From Escherichia coli (GTDB taxonomy: Bacteria; Pseudomonadota; Gammaproteobacteria; Enterobacterales; Enterobacteriaceae): 34,477 nt of DNA. This document shows, in pieces, positions 332-33,762 of this stretch (positions are counted from its first letter, which is position 1; the number at the start of each line of letters is the position of its first letter). The stretch lies in NCBI RefSeq assembly GCF_003334815.1, contig NZ_QOWO01000039.1; one strand, given 5' to 3'. The position numbers and the translations under genes were made by a program. Below the pieces are notes generated by a model. That model did no database searches. It saw only the letters and a program-made list of their open reading frames with translations, and was not told the DNA's origin.

Positions 332-1027
332 TTAGCAGTCATCAATAATCAAGTAAGTTGCATGTACTGGTCCATGCACACCAACAACTTTGATCAGTTC
401 TATATCTGCAGTAGAACTTGGGCCTCCAATCAGATTGATACAGGAAGGCAGTCGTTGTCCTTCCTGAGCCATTTCATGAAGTTTTTGCGCAAGCTGAGCC
501 ACTCGGGGGAGAATAGTGCTTTTGCGTAAAACAAATAATGATGCTTCAGGCAAAAGGCTTACTGAGCGCCCACGTTCTGGTGCGGAGAATAAGACAATGC
601 CTCCTGATTCTGTCAGCCCATACTCAGCGAAAACGACACCAGTTTTTGCCTTTTCAGCAAGATGGATATTTTCATCGCCCTTCTCCGGATCCCACAGAGC
701 AGCGTCCATTTCTTTTTGTAGCAATGGCGTAATCCCTGTATCGACCAGTCGTTGATCGTTGCTGATAATGACTGGCCCGGAACCGAACTTCCAACAGATG
801 TCTAAGGCTGTTGATGGTGCGTTCTCAGGCGACACCAGAACACACTCGGCAAGCATCACTTCCGAGGCAAATTTAATAAACGCCTCACAGCGTTGGTCTG
901 ATGTCAACTCTGTTAAACGTGTCGTAGCCAGCGTATTTACAGGCTCCGGCATTGCTTCGGGAATATGTCTTACTGGTCTGCCAAGCTTTCTGGCGATCGC
1001 AACGAGAAATTCCTCTCTGTTTTCCAT
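332..1027 (-). CDS. lutC: Lactate utilisation protein C (LutC/YkgG family)
   Basis: 231-aa ORF, last gene of a tightly spaced lutA-lutB-lutC arrangement; conserved C-terminal block ...AEYGLTESGG..LFS..ERGRS.SLLPE.SLF.LRKSTI.PR... resembles E. coli YkgG as recalled from memory. Confidence 0.85.
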   Translation of the reverse strand: MENREEFLVAIARKLGRPVRHIPEAMPEPVNTLATTRLTELTSDQRCEAFIKFASEVMLAECVLVSPENAPSTALDICWKFGSGPVIISNDQRLVDTGITPLLQKEMDAALWDPEKGDENIHLAEKAKTGVVFAEYGLTESGGIVLFSAPERGRSVSLLPEASLFVLRKSTILPRVAQLAQKLHEMAQEGQRLPSCINLIGGPSSTADIELIKVVGVHGPVHATYLIIDDC

Positions 1028-1030
1028 AAA

Positions 1031-2446
1031 TTACCCCTCCTTCTTATGTCGCTTGAACCAACTACGGAAGCTTTCTCCATCAGGTGATGGCAGGTCTCTG
1101 GCTTCAGTCCATTCTTTTATCGCTCCAACACTAATCGGCGTTTTTCCTTTCCTGATGAACAGACGGGCTGTTTTGGCCCCAGCAACCATACCTACCTTCC
1201 ACAACGCCGGATGGCTGTTTATGTAATTGAATGCTCTGGTTATACGGCGTTCCGTTAATGGTGTGATTTCAGACTCTGCCATAACCTGGCGATGTTTTTG
1301 TATTAGCGTTGCCAGAGGTATTTTTACAGGACATACCCCATTGCAGGCAGTGCACAATGAGCAGGCATAGGGTAAATCCTTAAAGTCTTCATATCCACCA
1401 AGCAATGGGGAAATAACCGCACCGATTGGCCCCGGGTAGATTGAACCATAACCATGCCCACCAATCTGACGATAAGCCGGGCAGGTATTAATGCAGGCAC
1501 CGCAGCGGATACATCGCAATACATCGCTGAATTCTGAGCCGAGAATCTCTGAACGCCCATTGTCAACAATAACGAGATGGAACTCTTCCGGACCATCAAC
1601 ATGTCCTTCTTCTCTGGGGCCTGTAAGCCAGGTGTTATAACCTGTCAGTCTCGCCCCGACAGCACTCCTTGCAAGCATGGTAATCAGAACATCCACCTCC
1701 TGGAATGTCGGAGCAATACGCTCCATACCCATAACAGCAATATGTGTTTTAGGTAATGTGGTGCACATCCGTGCGTTGCCTTCGTTTGTAACAAGGCAGA
1801 CTGACCCTGTTTCTGCAACGGCAAAGTTACACCCCGTTACGCCAACTTCAGCACTCAGAAAATCTTGTCTGATTTTCTCACGGATGAACAATGTCATTGC
1901 TTCTGGAGTTTCAGGCCCGTCATACCCCAGATGTTCATGTAAAACTCTGCGGATTTGATGGCGATCTTTATGTATTGCCGGCACAACCACATGCGATGGT
2001 GGCTCATGTGCTAGCTGAAGAATATATTCCCCAAGGTCCGTTTCAATCACGGGTATCCCGGCTTTCTGAAGAACGGCATTCATGCCAATTTCCTCAGTCA
2101 CCATTGATTTGGATTTAACAACCTTCCTGGCGTTTTTTTCTTTCGCCACCTTCAGTATGTAACTGGTTGCATCCTCTCTGGTACGGGCAAAATATACATG
2201 CCCGCCATTCGCAGTAACCTTTTCGGACAATTGATACAAATAAGCATCAAGATTTTCCAGAACATGCCGACGAATCTGTTCAGCTCGTGAACGCCATTCC
2301 TCCCAGTGTCCCAGTTCATCAACCATTTTCTGTCGATTAGTCCCTATGCGCTCCTGTGCGTTAGCCACAGCTTTTCGCATGATCGGGTCCTGAATCTGAA
2401 TACGGATACGCTCTTTAAACCTGATATCACTTGTTTTCAAAGACAT
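1031..2446 (-). CDS. lutB: Lactate utilisation protein B (LutB/YkgF family), 4Fe-4S iron-sulfur protein
   Basis: 471-aa ORF with ferredoxin-type cysteine motifs CIRCGACINTCP and CSLCTACNGVCP; 3-bp gap to lutC and 10-bp gap to lutA. Confidence 0.9.
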   Translation of the reverse strand: MSLKTSDIRFKERIRIQIQDPIMRKAVANAQERIGTNRQKMVDELGHWEEWRSRAEQIRRHVLENLDAYLYQLSEKVTANGGHVYFARTREDATSYILKVAKEKNARKVVKSKSMVTEEIGMNAVLQKAGIPVIETDLGEYILQLAHEPPSHVVVPAIHKDRHQIRRVLHEHLGYDGPETPEAMTLFIREKIRQDFLSAEVGVTGCNFAVAETGSVCLVTNEGNARMCTTLPKTHIAVMGMERIAPTFQEVDVLITMLARSAVGARLTGYNTWLTGPREEGHVDGPEEFHLVIVDNGRSEILGSEFSDVLRCIRCGACINTCPAYRQIGGHGYGSIYPGPIGAVISPLLGGYEDFKDLPYACSLCTACNGVCPVKIPLATLIQKHRQVMAESEITPLTERRITRAFNYINSHPALWKVGMVAGAKTARLFIRKGKTPISVGAIKEWTEARDLPSPDGESFRSWFKRHKKEG

Positions 2447-2456
2447 TCTGTTTACC

Positions 2457-3176
2457 TCATCTGTGCATCAGGACTTCAGCAATATGCATCACTTTTACAG
2501 GATGCCCTTCACGGTTAAGCCGACCGCCGATGTTTAGCAGGCAACTGGCGTCAGCCCCGATAAGAAAATCAGGTTTAACATCCATAATATGCCCGACTTT
2601 CTCTTTCACCATTTCACCAGAGATCTCCGCCATTTTTACAGAGAATGTGCCGCCAAACCCGCAGCACGTTTCCTGAGCGTGAAACGGCAGTAGCTCAAGC
2701 CCCTGTACATTCTCAAGTAGCAAAAGCGGCTCTCTGGTTACACCCAGCTTACGGGAAAGGCTGCAGGAGGGATGGTACACAGCGCGACCATTGAGTTTTG
2801 CCCCAACATCTGTGATGCCAAGATGATTTACTATAAATGATGTCAAATCATGCAGGCGTTCAGCCACTTTTTCAGCTCGTGCCGCCCACTCAGGTTCTTC
2901 ACTGAGATAGCGAGCGTAATTTTTTATCGTGTAAGTGCATGACCCGGCAGGAGATACTACCGGCCAGTCATTCTCTTCCAGCGAAGATATGAGATTTTTC
3001 ATGCCCGGGATGGCATCACGAACATAACCGCCATTTATCGCTGGCTGACCACAACATCCCTGCTTTTCGGGGAAATGGACATTGCAACCCAATTGCTCCA
3101 GTAACAGCACACTCTTTTGTGCCATCCGGGATTTAAACGCATCACCAATGCAGGTGACGAAAAAGTTAACATTCAC
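2457..3176 (-). CDS. lutA: Lactate utilisation protein A (LutA/YkgE family), cysteine-rich Fe-S oxidoreductase subunit
   Basis: 239-aa ORF; N-terminus MNVNFFVTCIGD... and CCG-type cysteine motifs (GCCGQP, CCGFGG) typical of YkgE/LutA; first of the three lut genes. Confidence 0.9.
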   Translation of the reverse strand: MNVNFFVTCIGDAFKSRMAQKSVLLLEQLGCNVHFPEKQGCCGQPAINGGYVRDAIPGMKNLISSLEENDWPVVSPAGSCTYTIKNYARYLSEEPEWAARAEKVAERLHDLTSFIVNHLGITDVGAKLNGRAVYHPSCSLSRKLGVTREPLLLLENVQGLELLPFHAQETCCGFGGTFSVKMAEISGEMVKEKVGHIMDVKPDFLIGADASCLLNIGGRLNREGHPVKVMHIAEVLMHR

Positions 3177-3225
3177 AGAAATTTCTCCTGTTGATTAATA
3201 TTCCACGTCCTTTTGTTGTTTTTTC

Positions 3226-4782
3226 TCAGGCCATGAACAGGTGGTAGACAAGGCCTACTTTCAGTCCAAGAATAACAATATAAGCAAAGCAGTACTTCAG
3301 TGTTCCTGACATGATTACGCTGCCCTGACCATCCATACGGGTGGCTGAAACAGCGATAGCAATACTCTGAGGAGAAATCATTTTGCCGCCTGTTGCGCCA
3401 GATGTATTTGCGGCAGCCAGCCAGAGCGGGTCCACATGCAATTTTTCAGCCGCAGTAGTCTGCAATTTACCAAACAGAATGTTGGAGTTTGTGTCACTAC
3501 CAGTAACAAATGTACCAAGAGCGCCGATAACCGGAGCAATGAAGAGGTAGGCCCCACCAGTCAGATCCACAAGGCTCTGTGCCAGAGTGCCAATCAACCC
3601 ACAGACATCCATTACCGTTGCCATGGCAACAATCGCAGAAATGGCAATAATGGAGTTTTTAAGTTGTTTTACCGTGCTGACAAATACGTTTAACAGGCAT
3701 GACAGGGATGCTTTCTGTATCAAGCCGCCAATAACACTGGCAATGATAATCAGAACACCGGGGGTTGCGATCCATTCAATTTTCATCGACAGATTGCTGC
3801 CGTTACTCAGAGAGAAGGTGAGTGACGAGGCAATCTGAGACACTGCACTTTTTATCGTCGGGAACAGTGGAGAGCAAAGCAGAATGAACAGAAAGATCAG
3901 AATGTAGATTGAGCACGCACGTAACAACGCCCCACGAGAGTATGAAAGTGCGCTGGCGCTATCTGCTGAACTCTCAATAAGAAATTCAGGTTCTGTTTTT
4001 TCTTTACGGTTTTTTGCCATAAAGACTATAACGATCAGACTGACAAGACTTCCTGCGAAAGCCGGGAGCTCTGCGCCAAGATTAACAGCCACCAGATACT
4101 GAGGTATCAATGTGCTAATACCGCACATCAGGGTAATTAACCCTACGCCTCGTATAGCTTTCATACCTCCACCGATAATCGTGACGATAACGAAGGGGAG
4201 CAGAATGTTGAACAGTGCCAGCTGAAGAATAATCGTCCCGCTGAGTGTGGTTACAGGTAAATTAACTTGTTCAGCAAGCACGGAGACAGGTATACCGACT
4301 GCCCCAAACGCTGTAGGGACTGTATTAGCAACCAGTGATGCAATCGCTGCTTTTAGTGGGTTAAAGCCCAGTGCAATGAGTATACCTATGGGGATTGCTA
4401 CCGCTGTACCGTATCCGGCGGCCGCCTCAAGAAATCCGCCAAAACACCATGAGATAAGAAGAACCTGGATGCGTTTATCGTCACTAACGCTCGCCAGAAC
4501 ATTTCTCAGAATATCCATGCTTTTTGTCGCATTCATCAGGTTATAGCTGTAAATGGCAGCAAGGATGACAATCACAATCGGCCACAAACCTTTGATTGCG
4601 CCGTATACCACAGCAGATCCCATATCCATAACTGGCGTCTGCCAGAAAACCCCTCCAAGGATTAGCGTGAGCAGGAGAGTGCTAAGCACAGAATAGTGTA
4701 TGGGCATTTTGACTTTCAGAATCAAAATGATCATCGCCAGAAGGGGGGTAAGTCCCAGTAAAAAAAGCAGGTAATCGTGCAT
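3226..4782 (-). CDS. lctP: L-lactate permease (LctP family), polytopic inner-membrane transporter
   Basis: 518-aa highly hydrophobic ORF with multiple predicted transmembrane segments, directly upstream of lutABC on the same strand (49-bp gap); RBS aaggaa before the ATG. Confidence 0.8.
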   Translation of the reverse strand: MHDYLLFLLGLTPLLAMIILILKVKMPIHYSVLSTLLLTLILGGVFWQTPVMDMGSAVVYGAIKGLWPIVIVILAAIYSYNLMNATKSMDILRNVLASVSDDKRIQVLLISWCFGGFLEAAAGYGTAVAIPIGILIALGFNPLKAAIASLVANTVPTAFGAVGIPVSVLAEQVNLPVTTLSGTIILQLALFNILLPFVIVTIIGGGMKAIRGVGLITLMCGISTLIPQYLVAVNLGAELPAFAGSLVSLIVIVFMAKNRKEKTEPEFLIESSADSASALSYSRGALLRACSIYILIFLFILLCSPLFPTIKSAVSQIASSLTFSLSNGSNLSMKIEWIATPGVLIIIASVIGGLIQKASLSCLLNVFVSTVKQLKNSIIAISAIVAMATVMDVCGLIGTLAQSLVDLTGGAYLFIAPVIGALGTFVTGSDTNSNILFGKLQTTAAEKLHVDPLWLAAANTSGATGGKMISPQSIAIAVSATRMDGQGSVIMSGTLKYCFAYIVILGLKVGLVYHLFMA

Positions 4783-5360
4783 GTCATTTCCTTAAACGAA
4801 AACAAAGTCAGCATCATTACTGTGGTTATTGATAGTTTCCACGCCCTGTCGGACGAGAGTGTTTATTTATCAGGGGGAGAATGAGTATCGTCTCCAAAAT
4901 TGGGATGTTCTTATAAAGTATTTTTTAGTTTAAAAAATATAGCTGAATCGTTTCATTGTTATCTTCCATGAATAAATGTTATGAAATAATACTTTTTGGG
5001 TATTTTTTGTTTATGCGTGTAACACTTGTGTGCTATCCCGATATAACCTTAAGACTGGAGTTGCAACTGGAGCTCGTCGAAAATCAACGCCCAAATCCTC
5101 GACAAATGGAGAAAGAGAATGAGCAATATCACCAGGAATAGGTAAGCGTCAACGGGGATGAAATACGGGGATTACCGGAGTCAGAGCGTCTTGCCGTCAG
5201 GCAGCAGCGAAGCAAAGTGTTACTGACGTCACTGCATGAATGGATGGTGGAGAAGAATGGTACGCTGTCGAAAAAATGTAAGCGTCGTCTGAGTACCGTC
5301 TGGTCCCGAATCCAGGATCCTGTAACTTAAGCACCCACTTATTTTGCAGGTGGACACCTC

Positions 5361-5744
5361 ATGCGCGCTAAAGAAAGACTTCCCCGGAAACACTATTCCC
5401 CTGAATTCAAAATGGAACTGGTCAGGCTGGCTCTTGAAGAAGAAGGCAGTATTGCCGCACTGGCCCGGAAACATGACGTCAATGATAACCTGCTCTTTAA
5501 ATGGATAAGGCTCTGGCAGCGTGAAGGGCGGGTCTGTCGGCCCCGAAAAAACTCATCGTCGCTTCCTGCCCTGATACCCGTGCAGCTTCAGGCGGGCTCT
5601 TCTCTCCCAACCTTCGAACTACCATCCTGCTCTCCTCCCGCTACCTGCCACATAAAATGTCGGGGAGGAGAAATAACACTGACTCATCCCTCTGCTGAAC
5701 TCATGAGCACTGTCCTGCGCGAACTGATGCGGGGGCCTGTATGA
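5361..5744 (+). CDS. tnpA: IS66-family accessory protein OrfA (TnpA)
   Basis: 127-aa ORF, first in the IS66-type three-gene arrangement; its stop overlaps the orfB start (ATGA). Confidence 0.8.
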   Translation: MRAKERLPRKHYSPEFKMELVRLALEEEGSIAALARKHDVNDNLLFKWIRLWQREGRVCRPRKNSSSLPALIPVQLQAGSSLPTFELPSCSPPATCHIKCRGGEITLTHPSAELMSTVLRELMRGPV

Positions 5745-6088
5745 TAAATCTTCCCGCAGGCACAAAAATCTGGCTGGTTGCCGGTATCACCGATATGCGC
5801 AACGGCTTCAATGGCCTCGCCGCAAAGGTGCAGACCGCGCTGAAAGATGACCCGATGTCCGGCCACGTCTTCATCTTCCGGGGACGCAGCGGCAGTCAGG
5901 TAAAACTGCTCTGGTCCACCGGCGATGGTCTGTGCCTGCTGACAAAGCGACTAGAACGTGGTCGCTTCGCCTGGCCCTCAGCCCGCGATGGCAAAGTGTT
6001 CCTGACGCCGGCGCAACTGGCGATGCTGATGGAAGGTATCGACTGGCGACAGCCAAAGCGGTTACTGACATCCCTGACCATGTTGTAG
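5741..6088 (+). CDS. tnpB: IS66-family accessory protein OrfB (TnpB)
   Basis: 115-aa ORF translationally coupled to orfA; precedes the transposase gene. Confidence 0.8.
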   Translation: MINLPAGTKIWLVAGITDMRNGFNGLAAKVQTALKDDPMSGHVFIFRGRSGSQVKLLWSTGDGLCLLTKRLERGRFAWPSARDGKVFLTPAQLAMLMEGIDWRQPKRLLTSLTML

Positions 6089-6137
6089 CGCTCTTTATCC
6101 TGGTTGTCGCAGAATAAGCCTGGTAAAATACAGGCTT

Positions 6138-7672
6138 ATGAACGACACCTCTTCTGACGACATCCTTCTGCTGAAACAGCGCCTGGCCGAACAGGAAGCG
6201 TTGATCCACGCCCTGCAGGAAAAGCTGAGCAACCGGGAACGCGAAATAGACCATCTGCAGGCGCAACTGGATAAGCTGCGCCGGATGAACTTCGGCAGTC
6301 GTTCCGAAAAGGTATCCCGCGTATCGCGCAAATGGAAGCTGACCTGAACCTGCTGCAGCAGGAAAGCGATACGCTGACCGGCCGGGTGGATGACCCGGCA
6401 GTGCAGCGCCCGCTGCGTCAGACCCGCACCCGCAAACCGTTCCCTGAGTCACTCCCACGGGATGAGAAGCGGCTGCTGCCGACTGAGCCGTGTTGCCCGG
6501 AGTGCGGTGGTTCGCTGAGTTACCTGGGTGAGGATGCCGCCGAACAGCTGGAGCTGATGCGCAGCGCCTTCCGGGTTATCCGGACAGTCCGTGAAAAGCA
6601 TGCCTGCCGTCGGTGCGATCGCATCGTTCAGGCCCCGGCTCCTTCGCGCCCCATCGAACGGGGGATCGCCGGACCGGGGCTGCTGGCCCGAGTGCTGACC
6701 TCAAAGTATGCAGAGCACATACCGCTGTATCGCCAGTCGGAGATCTATGCCCGCCAGGGTGTAGTGTTGAGTCGTTCTGTACTGTCGGGCTGGGTGGATG
6801 CGTGTTGTCGTCTGCTGGCACCGCTGGATGAAGCCCTTCAGCACTATGTCCTGACCGACGGCAAACTCCATGCTGACGATATGCCTGTCCCGGTGCTGTT
6901 GCCGGGCAATAAGAAGACGAAGACCGGGCGCTTATGGACGTACGTTCGAGACGACCGCAACGCCGGATCAGCGCTGGCCCCCGCAGTGTGGTTCGCTTAC
7001 AGCCCGGACAGAAAAGGTATCCACCCTCAGACCCATCTTGCAGGCTTCAGTGGCGTACTGCAGGCTGATGCCTACGCCGGGTTCAACGAGCTCTACCGCG
7101 ACGGCCATATAAAGGAAGCCGCGTGCTGGGCCCATGCCCGCCGAAAAATCCACGATGTTCACGTCCGTACCCCGTCAGCCCTGACGGAGGAGGCGCTGAA
7201 ACGGATCGGCGAGCTGTATGCCATCGAGTCGGAGCTCAGAGGTAAAAGAGCAGAGGAACGGCAGGCAGTCCGGCACCAAAAAGTGCTGCCGCTGCTGGCG
7301 TCACTGGAGGGGTGGCTGCGGGAGAAACAGAAAACCCTCTCAAGGCACTCAGAACTGGCGAAGGCGTTCGGGTATGCGCTGAACCAGTGGCCGGCGCTGA
7401 CCCGCTATGCAGAAGATGGCTGGGTGGAGGTGGATAATAACATTGCCGAAAACGCCCTACGACTGGTCAGTCTGGGGAGAAAAAACTGGCTGTTCTTCGG
7501 CTCGGATCATGGTGGTGAGCGCGGTGCGTCACTGTACAGTCTTATCGGGACGTGCAAATTAAACGGCGTGGATCCGGAACGCTATCTGCATCATGTACTT
7601 GATGTCATCGCCGACTGGCCTGTGAACCGGGTGGGTGCTCTGCTCCCGTGGCGGGTTACTCTGCCTGCCTGA
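6138..7672 (+). pseudogene. tnpC: IS66-family transposase (TnpC) split by a frameshift near 6330-6347
   Basis: Track ORFs 6138..6347 (N-terminal coiled-coil/leucine-zipper-like segment) and 6332..7672 (zinc-finger-like CxxC...CxxC, catalytic core, C-terminal ...LLPWRVTLPA) overlap in different frames and together make one IS66-type transposase. Confidence 0.75.
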
Positions 7673-9802: not shown

Positions 9803-10465
9803 TTAAAATACTTCGGCTACAGGCATGCCTGCAATCTGCTCCCACTCCTTACGCTTTTCCTGAATCAGGCGAGGAAAGTCGACAGGGTAATCATATCCTC
9901 GACTTGCCATTGCGTGCATGGTGTTTGATGCTGTTTCTGGATGAGCACACCATGATGGAACAGGAACCATTGGCAGATTGATGTATTTCGTATGAATTTC
10001 CAGTTTTTTGTCGTCTGTTACAGTACGAGTGAAATTATGAATGTCAAAACCGATAACATCCATAATGTTGCCTGGATAGATACGGACATACAACATTGTG
10101 CCATTTTTAAGGTCAATGCCGAAATAAGCTCCCTGGGTTAAAGATAATCCCTCATACCCCTTCTCTGGAGAGTAGAAGCCTGACTCTTTTATTGTTTGTA
10201 CAACTTTTCTTATTTTTTCTCTCCTTGTTTTTGCACGTGAGTACATCCATATGCCTGGCGCAAGTAATAAGAACCAACTACCGAAAGTGACAACATAATC
10301 TTCGACCTTATTTCCGAAATAACGATCAGAACATAGCATTTCGGTAAAGCCTAATGCGCAGAACAGAAAAAAAGGTATTCCAAGAAAGAAATAAGCTTTT
10401 CTTAATACATAATAAAATAGCCACCAGGTTGGAAATCTGTCTGTTGTTTCTTTTTTAGCTTTCAT
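9803..10465 (-). CDS. excA: Inner-membrane protein at the ExcA (entry-exclusion) position of IncI-type transfer regions
   Basis: 220-aa ORF with two N-terminal hydrophobic segments, last gene of the minus-strand tra block directly after the DotA-like gene; assignment is positional. Confidence 0.45.
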
Positions 10466-12800: not shown

Positions 12801-13385
12801 TCAGTATTGTTTACTGGTTACGGCAATTAATGTGGCATTGCGCCAGCCATTGCGGTAGTTCAGAAAATCACGGAAAGTCCCCTGCTCGGGTTCGCTGACT
12901 TTTCGTTCATGCAACTGCCAGAGGCGGTATGTAACTATCAGAGCTCTGGAAGCACAAAGAGCGACGCCTGACAGAATCAACACAAGAGTGCTGATGGCGC
13001 GTACCTGTGTCATCAAAGGTAATGAGGAGGCGGCAAAGAGCATACCGCTGAGGAATAAAGCGATGGCCAGCAGACTCCAGCAGCATAACCGCCATACTGT
13101 TCTGCGCCGGCGGAAACGACGATCCAGGTCGTCTACTGACATATGGCTGGCCTGCAGAGCTTCTTCCCACGAGAGGCAGAGTTGCGCCTTTTTATTATTT
13201 ACCTGACGAAATTTTTCCAGCCTGCTTTTTTGTTGCTTCAGCATATGCTGTACAGAATTCGTTATCAGGCGAGTCTCCATCAGAGGAACAAAAATGTTAA
13301 TAATCCTCCGGGTGGCTATGCGGGTTATGGATAGTGATTTTTTGACGTTTTTCGTCTGGTCTGAATTTTCCGGTAACTTATTCAT
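12801..13385 (-). CDS. Membrane protein at the TraX position of the tra block
   Basis: 194-aa ORF with C-terminal hydrophobic helices; co-directional and tightly packed with neighbours. Confidence 0.5.
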   Translation of the reverse strand: MNKLPENSDQTKNVKKSLSITRIATRRIINIFVPLMETRLITNSVQHMLKQQKSRLEKFRQVNNKKAQLCLSWEEALQASHMSVDDLDRRFRRRRTVWRLCCWSLLAIALFLSGMLFAASSLPLMTQVRAISTLVLILSGVALCASRALIVTYRLWQLHERKVSEPEQGTFRDFLNYRNGWRNATLIAVTSKQY

Positions 13386-13413
13386 TGTTTCAGTCCTGTT
13401 CTGACGTCAGCTT

Positions 13414-14616
13414 TCAACGTGCGTTTGCCTGATTGATTGTTTTCTCAAGGCTACCGAGTTGTTTTTCATAATACTGGCGGGCAGTCAGAGCCAGTTGCTG
13501 GCCAGAGATAACATTACCCTGGCGGATCTGTTCTTTCAGATCGTTCAGCTGCCAGTTCATTTGCGCAGTGATTCTTACCAGTTCACGGAGCAGGTTATCC
13601 CCCTGCATTTCCTGTAAATCCACCAGGTATGCTGTGTTGGCGTAGCGCCGGCCAGCCTCAAAAGCTTCAAACTCACGGGTACTCATATATCCCCGTGCTT
13701 TTGCTTCTGGTGAAGCCACTTGGTCGAAGTAAGCGGCCGCTGAGTCTGACTGCAGTGTTTCAGCCAGTGCTTTACGTGTGCTTTCATTAGGCGTGCTGTC
13801 AGCAATCAACGTCAGTTGGGGATTCGACGCAGAATCAATGATGCCGTTGTATTCGTTCTGGAGTCCGACGTAGGTTCGCCCACTCTGGGTATTCACTTCT
13901 CCTTTACCCAGAGCACGACCGGCAGAGGGGCGGGAAGTGTTTTTCATGTAAGCAGTCGCTGCATCTATTTGCTTCTGATCCCATGTCAGTGCCGCAGGTG
14001 TGTCCGCTGTACCTGCGCCGTGGTAAATCGAGCGTACCTGACTGTCTCCACCTGGTATTTCGCCCACAGAAGGACAAACGGCGGTTCCTCCAAAACGTGC
14101 ATATTCTGCTTCTGTACAGTAACTGGCGTGTATGGCCGCGCCATCATAAGCTTCCCGCACGGGAGAGTTTGCTGCGCTGGCCAGACGGTCGCGGATGCTA
14201 CGGTTGCTCACACCGCCACCTTTACTGAGTTTTGAGGCTGCGGATGCTGAGGCACTTTTGCTTACTGTTGCAATCCCTGATGCGGATTCACTGCAGATGG
14301 AGTCTGGCACGGTGAAGCTTTTCCGTGCCTCCTCGAGGCGCTGAGTTTCATTACTGAAAATCATCTGCTGACGTGTCGCCTGTCCGTTCTGGGCAATGAC
14401 ACTTGCCAGCTTTTCAGAGTTCTGATTGATAGCGGTACCCGTGGCTGTCTGGGTACTCAGTATGTCACTCAGCACACCTTTGATGGCCTCCATTCTGGGG
14501 ACGACCTGCTGTTCAACGGGACGGCTGGCGACGACGGTGACTGAATAAGCATGAGCCTGGTATGCCGTTCCATTCAGGATAGCTATAAGGGCTGCGAGTA
14601 ATGTTTTTCTTTGCAT
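13414..14616 (-). CDS. Secreted/periplasmic protein at the TraW position
   Basis: 400-aa ORF with N-terminal signal peptide MQRKTLLAALIAILNGTAYQAHA; overlaps the upstream gene by 34 nt. Confidence 0.5.
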   Translation of the reverse strand: MQRKTLLAALIAILNGTAYQAHAYSVTVVASRPVEQQVVPRMEAIKGVLSDILSTQTATGTAINQNSEKLASVIAQNGQATRQQMIFSNETQRLEEARKSFTVPDSICSESASGIATVSKSASASAASKLSKGGGVSNRSIRDRLASAANSPVREAYDGAAIHASYCTEAEYARFGGTAVCPSVGEIPGGDSQVRSIYHGAGTADTPAALTWDQKQIDAATAYMKNTSRPSAGRALGKGEVNTQSGRTYVGLQNEYNGIIDSASNPQLTLIADSTPNESTRKALAETLQSDSAAAYFDQVASPEAKARGYMSTREFEAFEAGRRYANTAYLVDLQEMQGDNLLRELVRITAQMNWQLNDLKEQIRQGNVISGQQLALTARQYYEKQLGSLEKTINQANAR

Positions 14617-22344: not shown

Positions 22345-23328
22345 TTACTCCAGTTCTGGTGTCACGTGAATGGACTGGCCATTCACAGAGAAAGTCAGTA
22401 GTGGGGTGACGGGAAGTTTCCAGAGATGAGTTCCGTCGGCAGAGGACAAGGTCTGTTCAAATTCATCGCGCAACATCGCCCGGGAACGAACCAGAAGGTC
22501 ATCGCCGTGTTGCCAGATCGTTGTATCCGGGACATTACCTGTGAATTTCAGCCTCTTAACTGAAGGGTCCCGGGGAGGAATACCATCCAGAAATGCCTGT
22601 AATGTTGCATCATGCAGGGCGATCTTATCCGTCGGGATGGAGACAACTGGGCTGGTTGGTCCCTGCCGTGGTATTCGCAGATCCAGACGACTGTCCATTT
22701 CTTGACTGGATGACGGCGTATCTGTTTCGCCACTGGTTACGTTCAGGATGACCGGTACCGACAGACCTTTCAGGTAGACAGAAATATTTCCGGATGTCCA
22801 TGGCCGCAATGGTGTGATTGTCACCATGTTCTCGTTGTACTGCACATCAAAGAGTTTTGGTGCCGCGTTATAAGGAGGATCGGATTGTGGCCATGGTGAA
22901 CCGTTGATATCGGTAAATGTCACCACGCTCAGGTTGTTCATGGCTGTGCGAACAAGAGGAAGGCTGGCACCGGGGGACAGATTAACTGTCAGAGAGCTGA
23001 TACGGGGTACAACACTGGTGATGGGCGCATTGATGGCCCGCTCGTTATCCGCCATGAGACTGCGTAGTGAGCGAATCTCATCGGCGGAGAGCTCAGAATC
23101 AAGCCTTGCCGCATCCTGTACCAGCGGGCTGGCCTGCCCGGGGGCAGGCAGCTCACCTTTTACCAGTGTTGCCGGAACACCTCCGGTGTTTTGGGAGGCG
23201 TTCTGAACGTGATCGCTGGCAGAATTTGTCGTTTGTGGTGTGCGTGCGTTCTGCCATCCTGCGTTATCTGCAGACGTGGCGGCGCTGCACACCAGGAGCA
23301 GTGTGCTCAGTAAATAACGTGATTGCAT
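22345..23328 (-). CDS. traN: DotH/IcmK-like periplasmic/outer-membrane core protein, TraN-type
   Basis: 327-aa ORF with signal peptide MQSRYLLSTLLLVCSAATSA; positional. Confidence 0.5.
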   Translation of the reverse strand: MQSRYLLSTLLLVCSAATSADNAGWQNARTPQTTNSASDHVQNASQNTGGVPATLVKGELPAPGQASPLVQDAARLDSELSADEIRSLRSLMADNERAINAPITSVVPRISSLTVNLSPGASLPLVRTAMNNLSVVTFTDINGSPWPQSDPPYNAAPKLFDVQYNENMVTITPLRPWTSGNISVYLKGLSVPVILNVTSGETDTPSSSQEMDSRLDLRIPRQGPTSPVVSIPTDKIALHDATLQAFLDGIPPRDPSVKRLKFTGNVPDTTIWQHGDDLLVRSRAMLRDEFEQTLSSADGTHLWKLPVTPLLTFSVNGQSIHVTPELE

Positions 23329-23338
23329 ATTACTTATC

Positions 23339-24031
23339 TCAGGAGTTCGGTCCGGCGTTACGGGAGATCATCTGCCGGATTTCCATACCGGATGGTTTCA
23401 GTCTGGGGTCAACACGCTGGATGGTGATTTCGAAAACAAAAGACTGTTCTGGCTTGCTGGTTGTCTGGCCGACCAGACGCATACGGACAGGATACTGGAA
23501 TGTCCAGAACCATACGCCGTCGGACATTTGTCCCTGTCGTACCAGAACGCCAGCACCTGTCGTGGCGGTCAGATTCATCTTCTCTTTCTTGATCGTCTCC
23601 AGAATGTTAGATGCCTGTAATGCATTCACATATCCGACAAAACCTTCGTCAGAAAAACGCGGAGACAGGGAGGAGATCTGTGAACGATAGTGCACAAAAT
23701 CCAGGTTGAATGCGGTCGCCAGTGCCTGGCTGCCAAAGGCCATTGCATCATTCTGACTCCATGCTGGCTGACTTGTTGGTGCCAGCCTGACCAGACGACC
23801 ATTGTCTGTAGCGAAATATTCGCGCTCCACATTCGTTGAGTGCCAGTACTGAATGGCGTTACCAGTAATACTGATAAGAAGACATGTGCCCGTACATAAA
23901 AGCGCTTTTATCAGCGCAGGGACATTATTTGCCCGCTGTTCTGACTGCTTCATAGCCCTGATTGTGCTCTTCAGTATTTCCGGGTCAGGTGCCGGATGTG
24001 ATGGCGAGGATGGCTCGGTATTTTCGGTCAT
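23339..24031 (-). CDS. traM: DotI/IcmL-like membrane protein, TraM-type
   Basis: 230-aa ORF with one transmembrane segment (LLCTGTCLLISITGNAIQYW); positional. Confidence 0.5.
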   Translation of the reverse strand: MTENTEPSSPSHPAPDPEILKSTIRAMKQSEQRANNVPALIKALLCTGTCLLISITGNAIQYWHSTNVEREYFATDNGRLVRLAPTSQPAWSQNDAMAFGSQALATAFNLDFVHYRSQISSLSPRFSDEGFVGYVNALQASNILETIKKEKMNLTATTGAGVLVRQGQMSDGVWFWTFQYPVRMRLVGQTTSKPEQSFVFEITIQRVDPRLKPSGMEIRQMISRNAGPNS

Positions 24032-24375
24032 AGGTTGTAGTCCTTCCAGGGATCAATATTCCCCGGCAGCTTTTCATTCACCTTGTCCACGACCGCGTCG
24101 CAGACCTGGTTTTCCAGCTGCGACAGAATGTCGTCAAGGCTGGGGAACTGGGGGAGGTTTATGCTGATTTTTTTGATTCGTGACAGACAGGACTGCAGGG
24201 ATGAGGAAACATCGTTTTCACGTTGTGACCATGCATCCGCAGCTGCACGTGCTCGCTCATATCCTGTATTACTACCGGCCTGTGCCGCGCTACCCGCACG
24301 ACAGGTTGCAGCACTTGCCGTGGATGAAATCAGGATAAGGCCGAGCACGGCAACCAGAGACTTATGCATGTTCAT
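24028..24375 (-). CDS. Small secreted protein at the TraL position
   Basis: 115-aa ORF with signal peptide MNMHKSLVAVLGLILISSTASA; overlaps traM by 4 nt. Confidence 0.5.
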   Translation of the reverse strand: MNMHKSLVAVLGLILISSTASAATCRAGSAAQAGSNTGYERARAAADAWSQRENDVSSSLQSCLSRIKKISINLPQFPSLDDILSQLENQVCDAVVDKVNEKLPGNIDPWKDYNL

Positions 24376-24392
24376 ATGGCTTCCTTACCGGC

Positions 24393-27300
24393 TCATCGGC
24401 CGGGGCTGTGGGAGAGATCCTGATGCAGAGTTTTTTCCTGCCTGTCCTCCGGCTTTTGGCTGTTGGACCACTGCTGCCATGACTGCTCGAAGCCCAGGTT
24501 CCGGTACAACGCATCAGGTTGTTTTTCCGGCGTGTAGACAGCAGCAAAAAGCGGTTCTTCCCGGGTTTTCAGATGAAACTGCATAAGCTCCGGTGCAGGG
24601 CGATTCGTGCTGTCAGCATCGTGGTTTACCGCTTCACCATAACCTGCAAAGCGTAAACCTTTGTCGGTCAGCGCATTGATAACCAGCTGACTGTTGTCGG
24701 CTGATGGGGTGGCCAGTGCCGGATACAATGTGCCGTTCAGCCGGACCACACCCTGCAGATGTTCATCGGCACTCTGGACAAGTAGCAGGTTGAGTTCACG
24801 CGTATCCTTATCCACTGATCCCAGAACAGGTGTCAGCTTGTCAGGGGCTGCGCTGGTTATTTCTGTTACCTGATTTGCGTTCTGTGGCGCGGAGACCGGA
24901 TGTCGGTCTTCACCGATAAACAGATGTGAGCCGACGTTTTCTGGCATACGTAACGCTTTCATCTCTTCGGGCCACCCCTGGCTGATTTGCGCAGCCACTT
25001 TCATAAAGGTTTCGACCGGAATCGCCTGAATACGCTGACCTTTATCCGGATTATCATGTGATACCGAGATCCCGTTGGTAACTGACTCCATGGACCACTT
25101 ATTCCGGAAACGTGCTTTTTGCTCTCCCGGGAGGATGAATTGTTCGCGGTTCTGAAGTGTCAGTGTCACCACGTCACCTTTCTGATGGTTTTTGACCAGA
25201 CTTTCCAGTTGTTCCCCCCAGTAGAGTTTGCTGCCACTGCGGTTTTTAAGCTCAACAAAGAAACTCTCTCCTTTGCCGGGTGCATATTCAGCACGACCAA
25301 AATTGTGCAGTACGGCAGTCACGCTCTCTCCCGGGCGAAGTTTTCCTGGTGGTTCTTCGTCTGGTGCCACATCTGCCGTTTTGCCTGGTTCAGCCGGTGA
25401 TGGTGCAGAGGCGGTGCTGACGGTTGATGCTTCAGGGGCTACTGGGGACGCCGGGGATTGTGTGGCTTCTTTTTCCTGAACGGGGTCAGGGACAGCCGGT
25501 TGTTCTGGGGTATTCCGGTTAAGTTCCGGTGTTGGCTGATGGGTGACAACTGCATCCTTACTGACAGCCATTTCCTTGCGTAATTTTTCTAGTTCAGCCC
25601 GTTGATCTGGCAATTTCATCCGGACATCGATGTTGTGCTCGATAATCAACTGCATTGCTTTTTGCTTAAAGGCATCACTGCCCGTCAGCTCTATGACGCC
25701 CCCATAAAATTTGGTGGCCACAGCAAGTGCGGCCAGAACGCTGCGATCGTCATTGCTGGCACCGTTGACCATTTCCAGCCGGTTTACCCGGTCAATGAAG
25801 GCAGGTTTGCCATCCAGTTTGTACAGGACGGTTCTGTCTGCTCGTTTTTCCCAGTCAAGCTCTTTAAGAATTTCGTCCATGTTGAGCGATATCGGTGCAT
25901 CAGAACGTTCCGGGGCGTAGACAATACTGTCAGGTATCGGTGGAGTCGTCGTGGTTTCCGCTGAGGGCGTGGGATCACTGTTCTCATGCGCCTGTGAATC
26001 CGTTTTTTTACGCGTAAAAAGGCCACGCGCTTTGTCGAGAAACGATGAAGTATTATCAGAAGGTGATGTGCTCTGAACAGGTTGCTGCGGAGTGGGTTCA
26101 TCCCGGACAGCCGGTTCTATAGTGGCTGTTGTGGCCTGAAGTTCTGACTCATCTGCCTGAACGGGGCCTGTGTCCGGTTGCGACGGCATATCACTGTTTT
26201 CCTGCAGATGCTCAGGATTTTCATTGTTCATCAGCTCCTGATATGCGCTGTAGTCTTCGTATTCTTCAGGGCCATCTGACTCAGGAAGGAACGGCTCTGG
26301 CTGAAGGGGAATGTCTTCAGTTACATGGCTGACCGCCTCTTCCCGGGGAGTATCCGGGGATATTCCGGTGCTTTGTTTGTCATCAGGCTCCGTCATCACG
26401 GTCATTTCCTCTTTGACTGCATCAGGGGAAGGTGATGGTTCGGCTGATTCATTCATGGTTTCAGATGAGGGGCTGTCTTCAGGGGCGGCGGGGGCAGCAG
26501 CAGGGGCCGGTATTTCTGGTGAAGTGCCGGACTCCTGTTGTAACTCGTTTTTTTCCGGTTGTGACAGTTCGGCTTCAAATTCACGCCAGTCTTTATCTGT
26601 GGCCACAGAGACAACTTTTTCCGGAGGTTCCGCCGGATGAGCGGGTTCATCAGGGGCAGACGCCGTTGTACTTTCCGGGGATGCCGGTGATTCTGCAGGG
26701 GAGTCCTGAACTACAGAGCTTTCCGTTTGCGCCTGAACGTTATCAGGGTGCCGCTCATCTTTGCCGTTATTTTCAGTGGCGTGACTGGTAAATGACAGTG
26801 TTTCATCAGCAATGTTACTGCTGGAAGCAGTTGGTTGTTCCTGCTGCGTGGCGGACGGCAGAGAAGGTCCCTGGTCATGGCTGTGCCCTGTATCGGGTGA
26901 TGTTTCAGGATATTCTGTCGGAGTCATGGTTTTTTCCTCAGTGTGGACCGGTGTAAAAACGAGGTTGCCGATCACCAGTGCCTCCCGGATTTCCGGGGTG
27001 TTACTGTTGGGGGTGGAAACCCCGATATGTTCTAACTGGGCGTTGATGACATGCTGAAAAGCGGCCCGTCCCCGGCTGGCGTCCAGGTCATTGAAATCGG
27101 TCAGTCCCTGCGATTTTTCGGCATCGGTGAACGCAGGAAAGATGACCGATCCTCCTGTCAGTTCTGCGGCTTTTGTTGCACTGACGATACCTTTGTTAAC
27201 CTGGCGTGCATGATCGTTGTCGGCACAGAAGATAAAGGGGCTTTGCTTCCATTTTTGCCGGGCATCTTCGGCCACGGCAATCATGTTGCCCGCATCCACT

Positions 27301-30251: not shown

Positions 30252-31066
30252 CGGGAGCCTCCTTCAGTGCCTATAAGCGGACGCCAGTGAGATTTCTGAA
30301 GATTGAATTCCGCATGATTTTTAAGGCGACGAACACGATCTCCAGTGACCAGTTTTTTCCCGTCACCTGTAACGGTTTGCATTTGATCAGAAACATCCGG
30401 ACGGGTGATCATGCCCTGACGCCAGAGAAGTGAGTACAGCATCATGCCCCGGTAATCACGGGTGAGGGTTTTCTGGTTGGCTTCAAGCGTCAGGTCGGCG
30501 TTTTGTCTTCCTTCCTGCCATCCCTGCCGTAATGCGGTTTCCCACACTTTTCGTTGCACGCTGTCTTCTGGAACGACGCTGCCTTCTGTACCCGGAGTGG
30601 CTGTTGTTGAAAGCCCCCGGAGAAGCCAGTCACGCCAGCCCGGTGGATTGCTGACAAAGCGTTCAGGGCGAATGATGGTCCAGACCCGGGAAGAGGTCCG
30701 GATTTGATCTGGCGTGATATGAGCTACGTCCTGTGCTTCATCAATAACCGGTGGTAGCCAGCCTTCCGGGCTAATCAGTGGCCGGAAATCGTATAAGGCA
30801 TTAAGTGTGCTTTCCCGGGCGTTGAGTGCCTGAATCAGCTCCCATGAACGCTGAGCCTTGCCACCACGAAATCCAAGCGTTTTACCTGCGTCGGTCAGCA
30901 TTTTCCAGCGTGTTTCTGACAGACTATCCGGCTTTTCACTTCGTGGTTTAAGCCATGCATTAATGTCAGGTGGTGGCGTATTGACACCACCTGGCGAGAT
31001 GGTAGGGGAAGAAGAACAACCAGTAAGCAGTATTACTGGCAAAATGAGAGAGGTGAGTGCTTTCAT
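30248..31066 (-). CDS. traI: DotC-like outer-membrane lipoprotein (TraI-type)
   Basis: 272-aa ORF with lipobox (LLTGC); overlaps traH by 4 nt. Confidence 0.55.
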   Translation of the reverse strand: MKALTSLILPVILLTGCSSSPTISPGGVNTPPPDINAWLKPRSEKPDSLSETRWKMLTDAGKTLGFRGGKAQRSWELIQALNARESTLNALYDFRPLISPEGWLPPVIDEAQDVAHITPDQIRTSSRVWTIIRPERFVSNPPGWRDWLLRGLSTTATPGTEGSVVPEDSVQRKVWETALRQGWQEGRQNADLTLEANQKTLTRDYRGMMLYSLLWRQGMITRPDVSDQMQTVTGDGKKLVTGDRVRRLKNHAEFNLQKSHWRPLIGTEGGSR

Positions 31067-31521
31067 TTTTTCCGGTTCTCCGGCTGCATGAAGCTGACCT
31101 GTAACAAGCCCGGATATTGATGGATTGTTGCTCTCCAGGCTGTCTGGGCTTCAATAAGTCTCAACGTATTGGAAAACGTCATATCCCGGACGTGAAGGTT
31201 GACTGGTAACGGCAGGCGGACACCATTGTAGTTAAACTGCATCCCCCTGACTCTGGCCAGTTCGTTCAGTAATTCAATTGCATCACCTTCCCAGTCAAAG
31301 GAAAGGCGATCGCTGTTAGCTGTCAGAAGATGAGACCCCGTTGAAACCGGAAGTTGGCCGGAAAACACACCTTTGTCCCATAATGTGTACTGAGTGTGCC
31401 GGGTAACCGCCACATCAGAGGCAGCACCGTAGTTACGCGGAACAGGAGTATGCTGAGAAGGGGAGTTGCAGCCAGCCAGAAAAAGGGCGGCAAGACACCC
31501 CGCAGGTATAATACGGTTCAT
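31063..31521 (-). CDS. traH: DotD-like lipoprotein (TraH-type)
   Basis: 152-aa ORF with lipobox (LFLAGC); about 395 bp of non-coding DNA upstream, probably holding the operon promoter. Confidence 0.55.
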   Translation of the reverse strand: MNRIIPAGCLAALFLAGCNSPSQHTPVPRNYGAASDVAVTRHTQYTLWDKGVFSGQLPVSTGSHLLTANSDRLSFDWEGDAIELLNELARVRGMQFNYNGVRLPLPVNLHVRDMTFSNTLRLIEAQTAWRATIHQYPGLLQVSFMQPENRKK

Positions 31522-31915
31522 AATAATTCCTGAGCAGTTAAATCAGAATGGGATATACCGGTGCTCCGGTACAGACAGGATGATGTTTGTTTCCGGCTAT
31601 ACTTGCGTTACCGGAAATAAATGCCAGTGTGGCCAGGTAAATAGCCTCATAGTTTACTGAAGGTGATTATTCCTGATACTGGCTGGTTGATGTGTCGTCA
31701 GACATAAAACGAATATGAGCGTAATCTTTAACGCTCCGCGCCGAATCGATCCATGATGGATGACTCGACGATTTATGAATCGAACGTACCGGCGCTTGTC
31801 CCTGAAACAGTTCCCGGCCCTCGTCCGGATAACCTGCAATTCAGACAGGCACATGTGCCCGTACACTCTTGTATCTTACTGAGTATATCAGAATTTATGT
31901 AAATTCAAATATCCT

Positions 31916-32500
31916 CTATGCCTCTTTGTTGTATTTTCCGTCAAGTATGAGCCGGGTACCATCGTAATGCATGATCAGGGCATCAAGGTACGCCGGTTTG
32001 AATTTCTTGCCGAGCCTATCTCTGGCCAGAAATGATAAACAATGATTATGTGTCATTATTACTATGTTCCTTTTATGAGATTCTCTTGCGATTGATTCAA
32101 GCGTCTTATAAAGATCATTATTGCAGTCTGATAAACTGTCCATAACGACGGGTTCTTTACCGGAGAAGAATTTTGCAGTTTGTATGGTTCTTACCGCATT
32201 GCTGGAGTAAATATCATATTCACTGAAGATTGTTGCGAACTTAATACCTTCCTGCTGTGCTTTCTCTGTACCGGTAATAGTGATTCCGCTTTTATCCGAA
32301 TAGCATGGCATATCTGAACGGTCGCAACGTTCTCCATGGCGGAAAAGGAAAATAACGGTGTTATCAGCATTAATTTCTTTTGCCTGTTCCAGGGTGATAT
32401 CGGGAAGCGAGCTTTTTGCTTTTGTCACTGCCGCTACCAGGAAAACAGAAAATAAAAGAATGAATGCTGTTTTTGAATAAGAAGAACGTGGTTTCATCAT
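31916..32500 (-). CDS. Periplasmic histidine-phosphatase-superfamily protein, Ais/PmrG-like
   Basis: 194-aa ORF with signal peptide and the RHG catalytic motif (FRHGERCDRS), later THNHC; size and layout resemble Ais-type small periplasmic phosphatases. Confidence 0.65.
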   Translation of the reverse strand: MMKPRSSYSKTAFILLFSVFLVAAVTKAKSSLPDITLEQAKEINADNTVIFLFRHGERCDRSDMPCYSDKSGITITGTEKAQQEGIKFATIFSEYDIYSSNAVRTIQTAKFFSGKEPVVMDSLSDCNNDLYKTLESIARESHKRNIVIMTHNHCLSFLARDRLGKKFKPAYLDALIMHYDGTRLILDGKYNKEA

Positions 32501-32525
32501 GTTATTTAAACTGAATATAAAAATA

Positions 32526-32547
32526 CCCCCGGGTTTAGTGCCGGGGG
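32526..32547 (-). terminator. Intrinsic terminator after the outer-membrane-barrel gene (stem cccccgg/ccggggg, then a U-rich tail on the minus strand)
   Basis: 7-bp GC stem followed on the minus strand by uauuuuuauauu; lies between the 32560 stop and the 32500 start. Confidence 0.55.
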
Positions 32548-32559
32548 CGGGGACAGTAA

Positions 32560-33762
32560 TCAGAAAGTGAACTGAAGTTGTGCCATTGCACCGTAATCGT
32601 GGTCAGTTCCTACCAGGCCGGAAACATCGATATGTACGACGTCAAATGGAGAGATACCAACGCCAGCGGTGAAGGCGCTTCCGGAGTCTGATGCCATGTT
32701 CTGACGATAACCGGCACGCAATTGCGCCCATTTCCATGCGTTAAATTCAGCACCAACACTTGCAAACTGACGTTTGCTGTCAGAAGTGAAGCCACTGGCA
32801 GGAGTCAGATCAACGTCAAGAGCAGTGGTAAACAGGTCATTATGCCAGGATACACCGGCGGTTGCCTGTGGACGAACTTTGAAGGTTTCTTTAAAGCCAT
32901 TGACGACTTTAGTATCAATACTGCGTGGAATGATGTTCTGGGCAACAAGACCGACAGTCCAGTTGTCATTCAGGTCTGTATAAGCACCAATATCGGCGTT
33001 GAATCCGTTTTTCGTGTTGTGGTACTTGTCACCGTCAAAATCGTCTTTGTCGTAATCACGAACCGTTACGTTGTAGTTAAACAGGTCCACACGCTGATAT
33101 TTTGGTGTGACGCCAAGAGACCATTTTTGTCCGGCCGTTTCCAGTTCTTTGGCAAATGAAATTCCGACGTCGGTAATTACAGCTGCACGCCCGAATGCGC
33201 GTGAGGTCAGGGCATTCTTATCGACGTCGGTAATTGTTCCATTGGCAACTTTGTCCAGATAATCCAGGTCTGCATCGTTTACTTTTCCGTTTACGCTGAC
33301 TGTTCCGTAAGACTTGACCATAAGGGCAAACGGCAGAGTGTCATTTGCCATGGCTGCTACAGCTGATGCACCTACCTGAGCATCTGCATTGATATTGCGG
33401 AATTCCTGCAGACGATGTTTAAGATTTGCCGCTGCCTGTTGTACGCCATGCTGGTTATCTACAGCACTGTCAAACAAATCCCAGTCATCTTTAACATCAT
33501 CAGCTTTATTTGATACATCATCAGGATCAGCAACTTGTGCCCCAACAGACGGCAGAAGAAGGCTGAAATCATCATTGCTGTTGTGCTTTGTCAGTAAAGC
33601 CGGGTTTGCCAGAGGTGCCACACCATAATGGGAAGATGCTACCCCGGTGCCACCCATTGCATCGTTACGCGCTTCAAAATATGACGTCGCTGCTGCAGCG
33701 TTAAAGGAAAATAATACAGCAGATGCAATGATGGTGCGGGTAATATGATTTTTCTTCATCAT
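32560..33762 (-). CDS. Outer-membrane beta-barrel protein (signal peptide, C-terminal ...LQFTF)
   Basis: 400-aa ORF with signal peptide MMKKNHITRTIIASAVLFSFNAAAA, many alternating hydrophobic/polar strands and a terminal Phe; sits where traF would be in IncI naming but is not verified. Confidence 0.55.
   Translation of the reverse strand: MMKKNHITRTIIASAVLFSFNAAAATSYFEARNDAMGGTGVASSHYGVAPLANPALLTKHNSNDDFSLLLPSVGAQVADPDDVSNKADDVKDDWDLFDSAVDNQHGVQQAAANLKHRLQEFRNINADAQVGASAVAAMANDTLPFALMVKSYGTVSVNGKVNDADLDYLDKVANGTITDVDKNALTSRAFGRAAVITDVGISFAKELETAGQKWSLGVTPKYQRVDLFNYNVTVRDYDKDDFDGDKYHNTKNGFNADIGAYTDLNDNWTVGLVAQNIIPRSIDTKVVNGFKETFKVRPQATAGVSWHNDLFTTALDVDLTPASGFTSDSKRQFASVGAEFNAWKWAQLRAGYRQNMASDSGSAFTAGVGISPFDVVHIDVSGLVGTDHDYGAMAQLQFTF

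Follow-up and report, generated by a model that had tools for sequence, protein, structure and literature searches.

An Ais-like histidine phosphatase gene between traF and traH is traG of the IncI1 backbone and probably serves as an accessory gene acting on the envelope

The window analysed here, a whole stretch of 34,477 nucleotides from Escherichia coli (contig NZ_QOWO01000039.1 of assembly GCF_003334815.1), carries within its conjugation block an open reading frame that is traG of plasmid R64, a long-known and non-essential gene of the IncI1/I-gamma backbone. We consider it quite probable that traG is accessory, occupies a slot of variable content between traF and traH, and encodes an exported Ais-like phosphatase that acts on the envelope and does not belong to the structure of the type IVB secretion system (T4BSS). 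The gene and its two neighbours are placed as follows.

31916..32500, minus strand: traG, coding sequence of 194 amino acids with an ATG start (Ais family, predicted export; R64 TraG, WP_000977522.1)
32560..33762, minus strand: traF, the upstream neighbour, encoding a 400-amino-acid outer-membrane barrel (PF13729 TraF_2; weak PorV/PorQ similarity)
31063..31521, minus strand: traH, the downstream neighbour, encoding a DotD-family lipoprotein

A sequence-only reading of this DNA had described a small secreted phosphatase gene at 31916-32500, between a barrel gene and traH, with a terminator upstream and about 395 bp of non-coding DNA downstream. This layout proved accurate: traF lies upstream across a gap of 59 nt that holds a terminator-like hairpin (32548..32525), and traH lies downstream across a gap of 394 nt. 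Beyond traH come a DotC-like traI and the traJ ATPase gene, so that the minus-strand order is traF, traG, traH, traI, traJ. The GC content of traG is 40.3%, as against 47.3% for traF, 51.2% for traH and 49.7% for the whole window.

The 2.5-kb region around traG is 100% identical at the DNA level to IncI1/I-gamma plasmids, and 1,369 PLSDB records match it at 99% identity or more. In the record that best matches the window (NZ_CP024481.1), WP_000977522.1 is annotated as a 'histidine phosphatase family protein' and lies between TraF and TraH, and the IncI1 prototype R64 (NC_005014) encodes the identical protein at the traF-traH position. We found no difference between the TraG of R64 and that of the window; the same protein in the same slot, with the same gaps on either side, is also that of ColIb-P9 and pESBL. 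Whether canonical IncI backbones carry an equivalent had been left undecided by the sequence-only reading; on checking, R64 and about 1,370 PLSDB plasmids carry it. Depositors have labelled the gene 'traG: histidine phosphatase domain protein' or 'IncI1 plasmid conjugative protein TraG predicted phosphatase', and it is named traG in records LC567090, LC567094 and LT985289. The identification itself therefore adds nothing new, as the protein is already annotated as a histidine phosphatase or an LPS core heptose(II)-phosphate phosphatase on more than 1,000 plasmids. A search of the openly searchable literature found no biochemical or genetic work on the function or substrate of TraG.

The assignment to a family rests on profile searches, alignment and fold prediction, and the residues that matter to it are encoded at the following positions.

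32417..32500, minus strand: predicted Sec signal peptide, traG codons 1-28 (hydropathy and inspection)
32333..32341, minus strand: RHG motif, codons R54-H55-G56, with the catalytic histidine (sequence reading and 72-member alignment)
32039..32053, minus strand: codons T150-H151-N152-H153-C154, in which H151 is the second conserved active-site histidine (sequence and alignment)

A search with NCBIfam profile models, which the earlier reading had proposed as a check, placed TraG in the Ais subfamily far above threshold: NF011945 (PRK15416, the LPS core heptose(II)-phosphate phosphatase subfamily) scored 295.1 bits (E=2e-88; cut-off 142), in an alignment that spans TraG residues 1-192 and model positions 4-200 of 201. 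By the PmrG equivalog model NF052369, TraG scored 123.7 bits and missed the cut-off of 170, and its match to the Pfam family His_Phos_1 (PF00300) was weak (E=3.5e-4). Identity to E. coli K-12 Ais is 43% over 164 amino acids. The family is small, with 131 cluster representatives at E<=1e-3 among 1.84 billion. None of the PADLOC defence models matched TraG, TraF or TraE.

A sequence search of the PDB with TraG gave no match at E<=1, and the fold was assessed by prediction and Foldseek instead of by PDB sequence relatives. An AlphaFold model built from the alignment of 72 homologues reached a pLDDT of 94.9 and a pTM of 0.85, and all 50 of the 50 PDB matches listed by Foldseek are, or contain, branch-1 histidine phosphatase domains, with E values down to 4e-8; RosC, phosphoserine phosphatase, SixA and PGAM5 are among these neighbours. 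In the 72-homologue alignment H55, C59, C66, G72, R104 and C126 are invariant, and R54, E57, R58, D60, T150, H151 and C154 nearly so. The phosphate-pocket residues identified by alignment are likewise kept, R58 and R104 being conserved and H151 nearly invariant. The catalytic histidine is thus present, and the alignment shows a putative catalytic core (R54, H55, R58, R104, H151) that is intact. At its N-terminus TraG reads like a Sec signal, with basic residues at K3, R5 and K10, a hydrophobic core of 15 residues (11-25) and then TKA|KSS, as judged by hydropathy and inspection. The mature protein has four cysteines (59, 66, 126 and 154), conserved across the family, which would fit disulfides formed in the periplasm. 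TraG is therefore a member of the branch-1 histidine phosphatase superfamily and of its Ais subfamily NF011945, and is not a PmrG equivalog by the NCBI threshold. The earlier description of the protein as an Ais/PmrG-like histidine phosphatase is upheld by the profile score, the identity to Ais and the fold matches, with export being predicted.

TraG resembles Ais (E. coli b2252) and PmrG (Salmonella) in subfamily, in size, in its predicted export signal, in the RHGERCDRS and THNHC motifs and in the four cysteines, with the 43% identity holding over the mature domain. It differs from them in setting and in relatedness: traG is plasmid-borne inside a tra block, whereas K-12 ais is chromosomal and lies beside arnB of arnBCADTEF, and unlike PmrG it has no PmrA box, falls below the equivalog cut-off and belongs to a separate clade. 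Salmonella PmrG dephosphorylates heptose II of the LPS core (Nishino 2006, as cited in PMC8129183). Because TraG falls below that cut-off and in a separate clade, carrying this substrate over from PmrG by homology is uncertain. A different periplasmic substrate, such as a phosphate of lipid A, some other phosphate or pyrophosphoethanolamine of the core, or a protein or sugar that carries phosphate, is in our judgement rather unlikely as an alternative to heptose(II) phosphate. The missed cut-off, the modest identity to Ais and the grouping of TraG in a distinct clade with a paralogue from an E. coli island (100% bootstrap) speak for it, as does the notorious substrate diversity of histidine phosphatases, to which the Foldseek neighbours of TraG bear witness. 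However, the only characterised member of the family acts on heptose(II) phosphate, as far as the account in PMC8129183 goes, and TraG retains all of the family-invariant residues, including the four cysteines. We keep heptose(II) phosphate as the most probable substrate, by analogy with Salmonella PmrG. In E. coli, deletion of pmrG alone gave no polymyxin phenotype in a PmrA-constitutive strain (PMC8129183), so that any phenotype of TraG may be subtle.

The region upstream of traG contains one feature that bears on its expression.

32515..32548 (stem 32548..32525), minus strand: intrinsic-terminator-like hairpin with a T-run, directly after the traF stop codon

The hairpin has an 8-bp stem with 7 G-C pairs, followed by ATTTTTATAT, with 24 nt between the end of the stem and the traG ATG. 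Two IncK2/Z plasmids without traG (L003 and L004) likewise have such a hairpin after traF; the hairpin is therefore the traF terminator and not a feature of a traG unit. No sigma-70-like promoter was found between the terminator and the traG ATG, and no Shine-Dalgarno sequence was seen upstream of this ATG. For traH, an AGGA Shine-Dalgarno sequence is found at the 3' end of the traG-traH spacer. A search for PmrA boxes found no box-like site near traG, and only chance-level matches elsewhere in the window. The suggestion that traG may be its own transcription unit is consequently not supported, since the 24-nt interval between terminator and ATG holds no promoter and the hairpin belongs to traF. 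Because there is no PmrA box and the gene stands behind the traF terminator, we propose a low, PmrAB-independent level of TraG, which probably comes from low-level read-through from traE-traF.

Mutants of R64 in traE, traF or traG reportedly still transfer. The transposon-insertion sequencing (TnSeq) of pESBL has an entry for TraG whose gene length and gaps are those of the window (Yamaichi et al., PMC4288162, Table 2), and it was scored there as non-essential 0.79, maintenance 0.21 and required for transfer 0.00, in matings with one recipient and on solid medium only; TraE and TraF were likewise non-essential (PMC4288162). TraG is thus not a core component of the Dot/Icm-like T4BSS, since it is missing from some I-type systems and is dispensable for transfer. 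The sequence-only reading had named, as an outcome that would speak against it, a conserved and named Tra component of all IncI-type systems. The name does exist, traG; universality does not hold, since the IncK2/Z plasmids examined are without the gene, and transfer does not require it.

The distribution of traG follows that of the IncI1 backbone. In PLSDB, TraG at 80% identity or more is found in 1,373 plasmids, as against 1,368 for IncI1-type TraF at 95% or more, and of 1,441 plasmid matches 1,392 span 80% or more of TraG (more than 96% full length); some truncated or frameshifted traG variants are present in databases. About 500 plasmids encode a TraF that is 60-80% identical, whereas TraG matches below 60% identity amount to only 68 records in total, and traG was absent in every example of this TraF class that we opened. 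In the IncK2/Z plasmids L003, L004 and L017, traF is followed by traH after 103-358 nt with traG missing. An Enterobacter plasmid has an unrelated 138-aa open reading frame in the slot. In a Salmonella serovar Hadar plasmid, which encodes a TraF of 86% identity, traF and traH are 517 nt apart with no traG between them, and no traE is annotated. Across L003, L004, L006, L016 and L017 the junction varies from an empty 103-nt gap, through spacers of 358-517 nt with small hypothetical open reading frames, to the 138-aa open reading frame. Beyond this slot, Ais paralogues are also seen on IncF plasmids and within chromosomal islands.

These observations bear on the possibility that traG is host-benefit cargo with no tie to conjugation: a gene that merely occupies a permissive intergenic slot and supplies an extra, PmrAB-independent Ais-like enzyme, with an effect on how well the host tolerates Fe(III)/Al(III), cationic peptides, bile or phage. 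We regard this explanation as doubtful. It would account for the variability of the slot in relatives, for a GC content below the 47-52% of the neighbours, for the related paralogues in non-conjugative islands and on IncF plasmids and for the dispensability of traG in transfer (PMC4288162), and it would sit well with a role of PmrG in metal resistance (as cited in PMC8129183). Yet IncI1 cargo genes normally cluster in the accessory region and not inside the tra block, and the retention of traG at high identity in essentially all IncI1 backbones, as the near-equal counts of TraG and TraF indicate, is unusual for cargo.

Comparison with a second allele delimits a segment that has been exchanged in this part of the plasmid.

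31500..32604, no strand assigned: variable segment of about 1.1 kb (the last ~45 nt of traF, the terminator, traG and the spacer), from comparison with the L008 allele
31522..31915, minus strand: traG-traH spacer of 394 nt, part of the same divergent, recombining segment as traG

L008 has an IncI1 backbone in which TraF is 99%, TraH 97%, and TraI and TraJ 100% identical to those of the window, whereas TraG is only 72% identical. Identity at the DNA level falls from 99-100% to about 75% at window position ~32604 and returns to 92-98% at ~31500; within the segment it is about 25-83% per 100-nt block, compared with 92-100% in most flanking blocks. These sharp breakpoints indicate that a segment of about 1.1 kb, comprising the traF end, the terminator, traG and the spacer, was exchanged by recombination. 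A search for repeats flanking traG, as the marks of a transposon or cassette, yielded nothing convincing.

Between the window and L008 alleles of traG, dS is about 1.06 and dN/dS 0.15, and between diverged alleles dN/dS ranges from 0.15 to 0.21, which shows that TraG is maintained under purifying selection in both the window and the L008 alleles. That traG could be a decaying relic without function is scarcely credible. The gene is dispensable in TnSeq (PMC4288162), has no Shine-Dalgarno sequence, stands behind a strong terminator and has truncated or frameshifted variants in databases; but a dN/dS near 0.15 where synonymous divergence is about 1, the intactness of all catalytic and structural residues and the full length of more than 96% of plasmid copies are at odds with decay, and we reject this reading because of the selection data. 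The P0005 allele (L019) has a dN/dS of 1.5, which we do not take as positive selection: its changes are homopolymer-like and likely reflect an assembly error.

A second I-type lineage carries in the same traF-traH slot an Ais-family gene whose product is 39% identical to TraG (L013, P0040 and P0044). It is represented by CP057134.1, a 139-kb contig, and an element integrated in the chromosome CP007392.1. Its neighbours compare with those of the window at 86% for TraF, 68% for TraH and 56% for TraJ, and its Ais-like gene differs from traG in GC content (52% versus 40%), in clade and in being rare, with 3 PLSDB records. The CP007392.1 locus (L021, 4962246-4970824) comprises a traE-traF-ais-like segment and pil genes within a 5.05-Mb E. 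coli chromosome record, which suggests that an I-type element has integrated there or been rearranged; in its Ais-like gene (P0044) a stretch of local divergence may reflect a frameshift. In a contig of GCA_036611895.1 (L018, 2817-3587), the 3' end of traF, the terminator and traG recur together at 87% identity next to type II secretion genes. We considered this 87% allele (P0004) as an independent origin and rejected it, since it is a rearranged fragment cut exactly at the traG stop codon by an IS481-family element.

In a neighbour-joining tree, the TraG of R64, the 72% allele and an E. coli island paralogue outside any tra block (P0020) group together with 100% bootstrap. P0020 is the nearest relative of TraG outside tra loci, at 60% identity, and lies among AraC-type regulators, CaiF/GrlA and an autotransporter; it differs from TraG in having no linkage to conjugation genes. 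The Ais genes of the second lineage form a separate clade, the TraG clade is separate from chromosomal Ais/PmrG, and deep nodes are unsupported. This topology favours, and does not settle, cassette exchange or independent capture over simple co-divergence for the Ais genes of the slot. The variability of the slot and the replacement of the allele are minor new observations.

The spacer downstream of traG was also analysed. None of the plasmid records listed among its 1,410 matches annotates anything in it, and ColIb-P9 (NC_002122.1) has an identical spacer. It contains a perfect 12-nt palindrome, GGCACATGTGCC, at 31848-31859. The spacer folds better than its shuffles (z about -4.0), yet we do not take this as a mark of structured RNA, because 2 of 24 same-strand control windows were more extreme; these were two 394-nt coding windows at 23000-24393 (minus strand) in the traM/traL/sogL region, with folding z values of -6.2 and -5.0. 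An Rfam search of 31300-32700 gave only a chance-level match, at 15.8 bits against a gathering score of 50. Elsewhere in the window, traX (194 aa) and traW (400 aa), at 12801-14616 on the minus strand, were considered as a duplication of traG and traF; there is no similarity, and the equal lengths are a coincidence. Next to the tra block, beyond excA (9803-10465), positions 332-7672 hold cargo: a minus-strand lactate-utilisation cluster of a LutB-family gene (1031-2446), a GlpC/LdhH-C-terminal-like gene (2457-3176) and an LctP permease gene (3226-4782), and beside it an IS66 element with tnpA (5361-5744), tnpB (5741-6088) and a transposase gene (6332-7672).

In the mechanism that we propose for TraG as an accessory, envelope-acting enzyme, the protein would be exported through Sec, as its predicted signal suggests, in the plasmid-bearing cell, where H55 would serve as the nucleophile in dephosphorylating a component of the envelope; heptose(II) phosphate in the LPS inner core is the most probable target. 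Produced at low level by read-through from traE-traF, TraG would not depend on the host PmrAB regulon, and donor cells would come to carry an LPS core with less negative charge. Its role would be to modulate fitness or mating and not to build the type IVB secretion machine.

One version of such a role is mating-partner recognition, in which an LPS inner core edited by TraG in the donor directs PilV thin pili or the T4BSS towards recipients and away from sibling donors, or in which the edit eases assembly of the pilus or secretion machine through the outer membrane, with alleles swapped to match host LPS. The tight linkage of traG to tra genes in about 1,370 IncI1 plasmids, the occurrence of two separate Ais-family clades in the same slot of two I-type lineages, the allele replacement with its sharp breakpoints and the outer-membrane barrel encoded by neighbouring traF are all in keeping with it, and the LPS core structures that I-type PilV adhesins recognise do include a Hep-Hep-4-phosphate epitope (PMC10654706). 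On balance we hold it improbable: the TnSeq score for a transfer requirement is 0.00 (PMC4288162), traG is missing from IncK2/Z plasmids whose pil/shufflon and tra genes are laid out in the same way, and recognition by TP114 PilVA' needs no Hep II phosphate added by WaaY (PMC10654706).

A bolder and quite speculative extension of the accessory-gene reading is that in I-type conjugative plasmids the junction of traF and traH is dedicated to the exchange of Ais-family LPS-core phosphatases (the R64 type, the 72% variant and the 39% L013 type), which would be swapped by recombination to match or reshape the donor LPS inner core. If this were true, the exchange would tune recognition by PilV and the thin pilus, donor self-exclusion, or susceptibility to phage or cationic peptides, and it would amount to plasmid-encoded envelope editing that is coupled to conjugation and invisible in laboratory K-12 agar matings.

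The remaining interest of traG is that it encodes an enzyme that is conserved and under purifying selection, yet dispensable for transfer. As a plasmid-borne, PmrAB-independent modifier of the LPS core, TraG could alter the mating specificity of donor cells, their susceptibility to phage and their tolerance of metals and cationic peptides.
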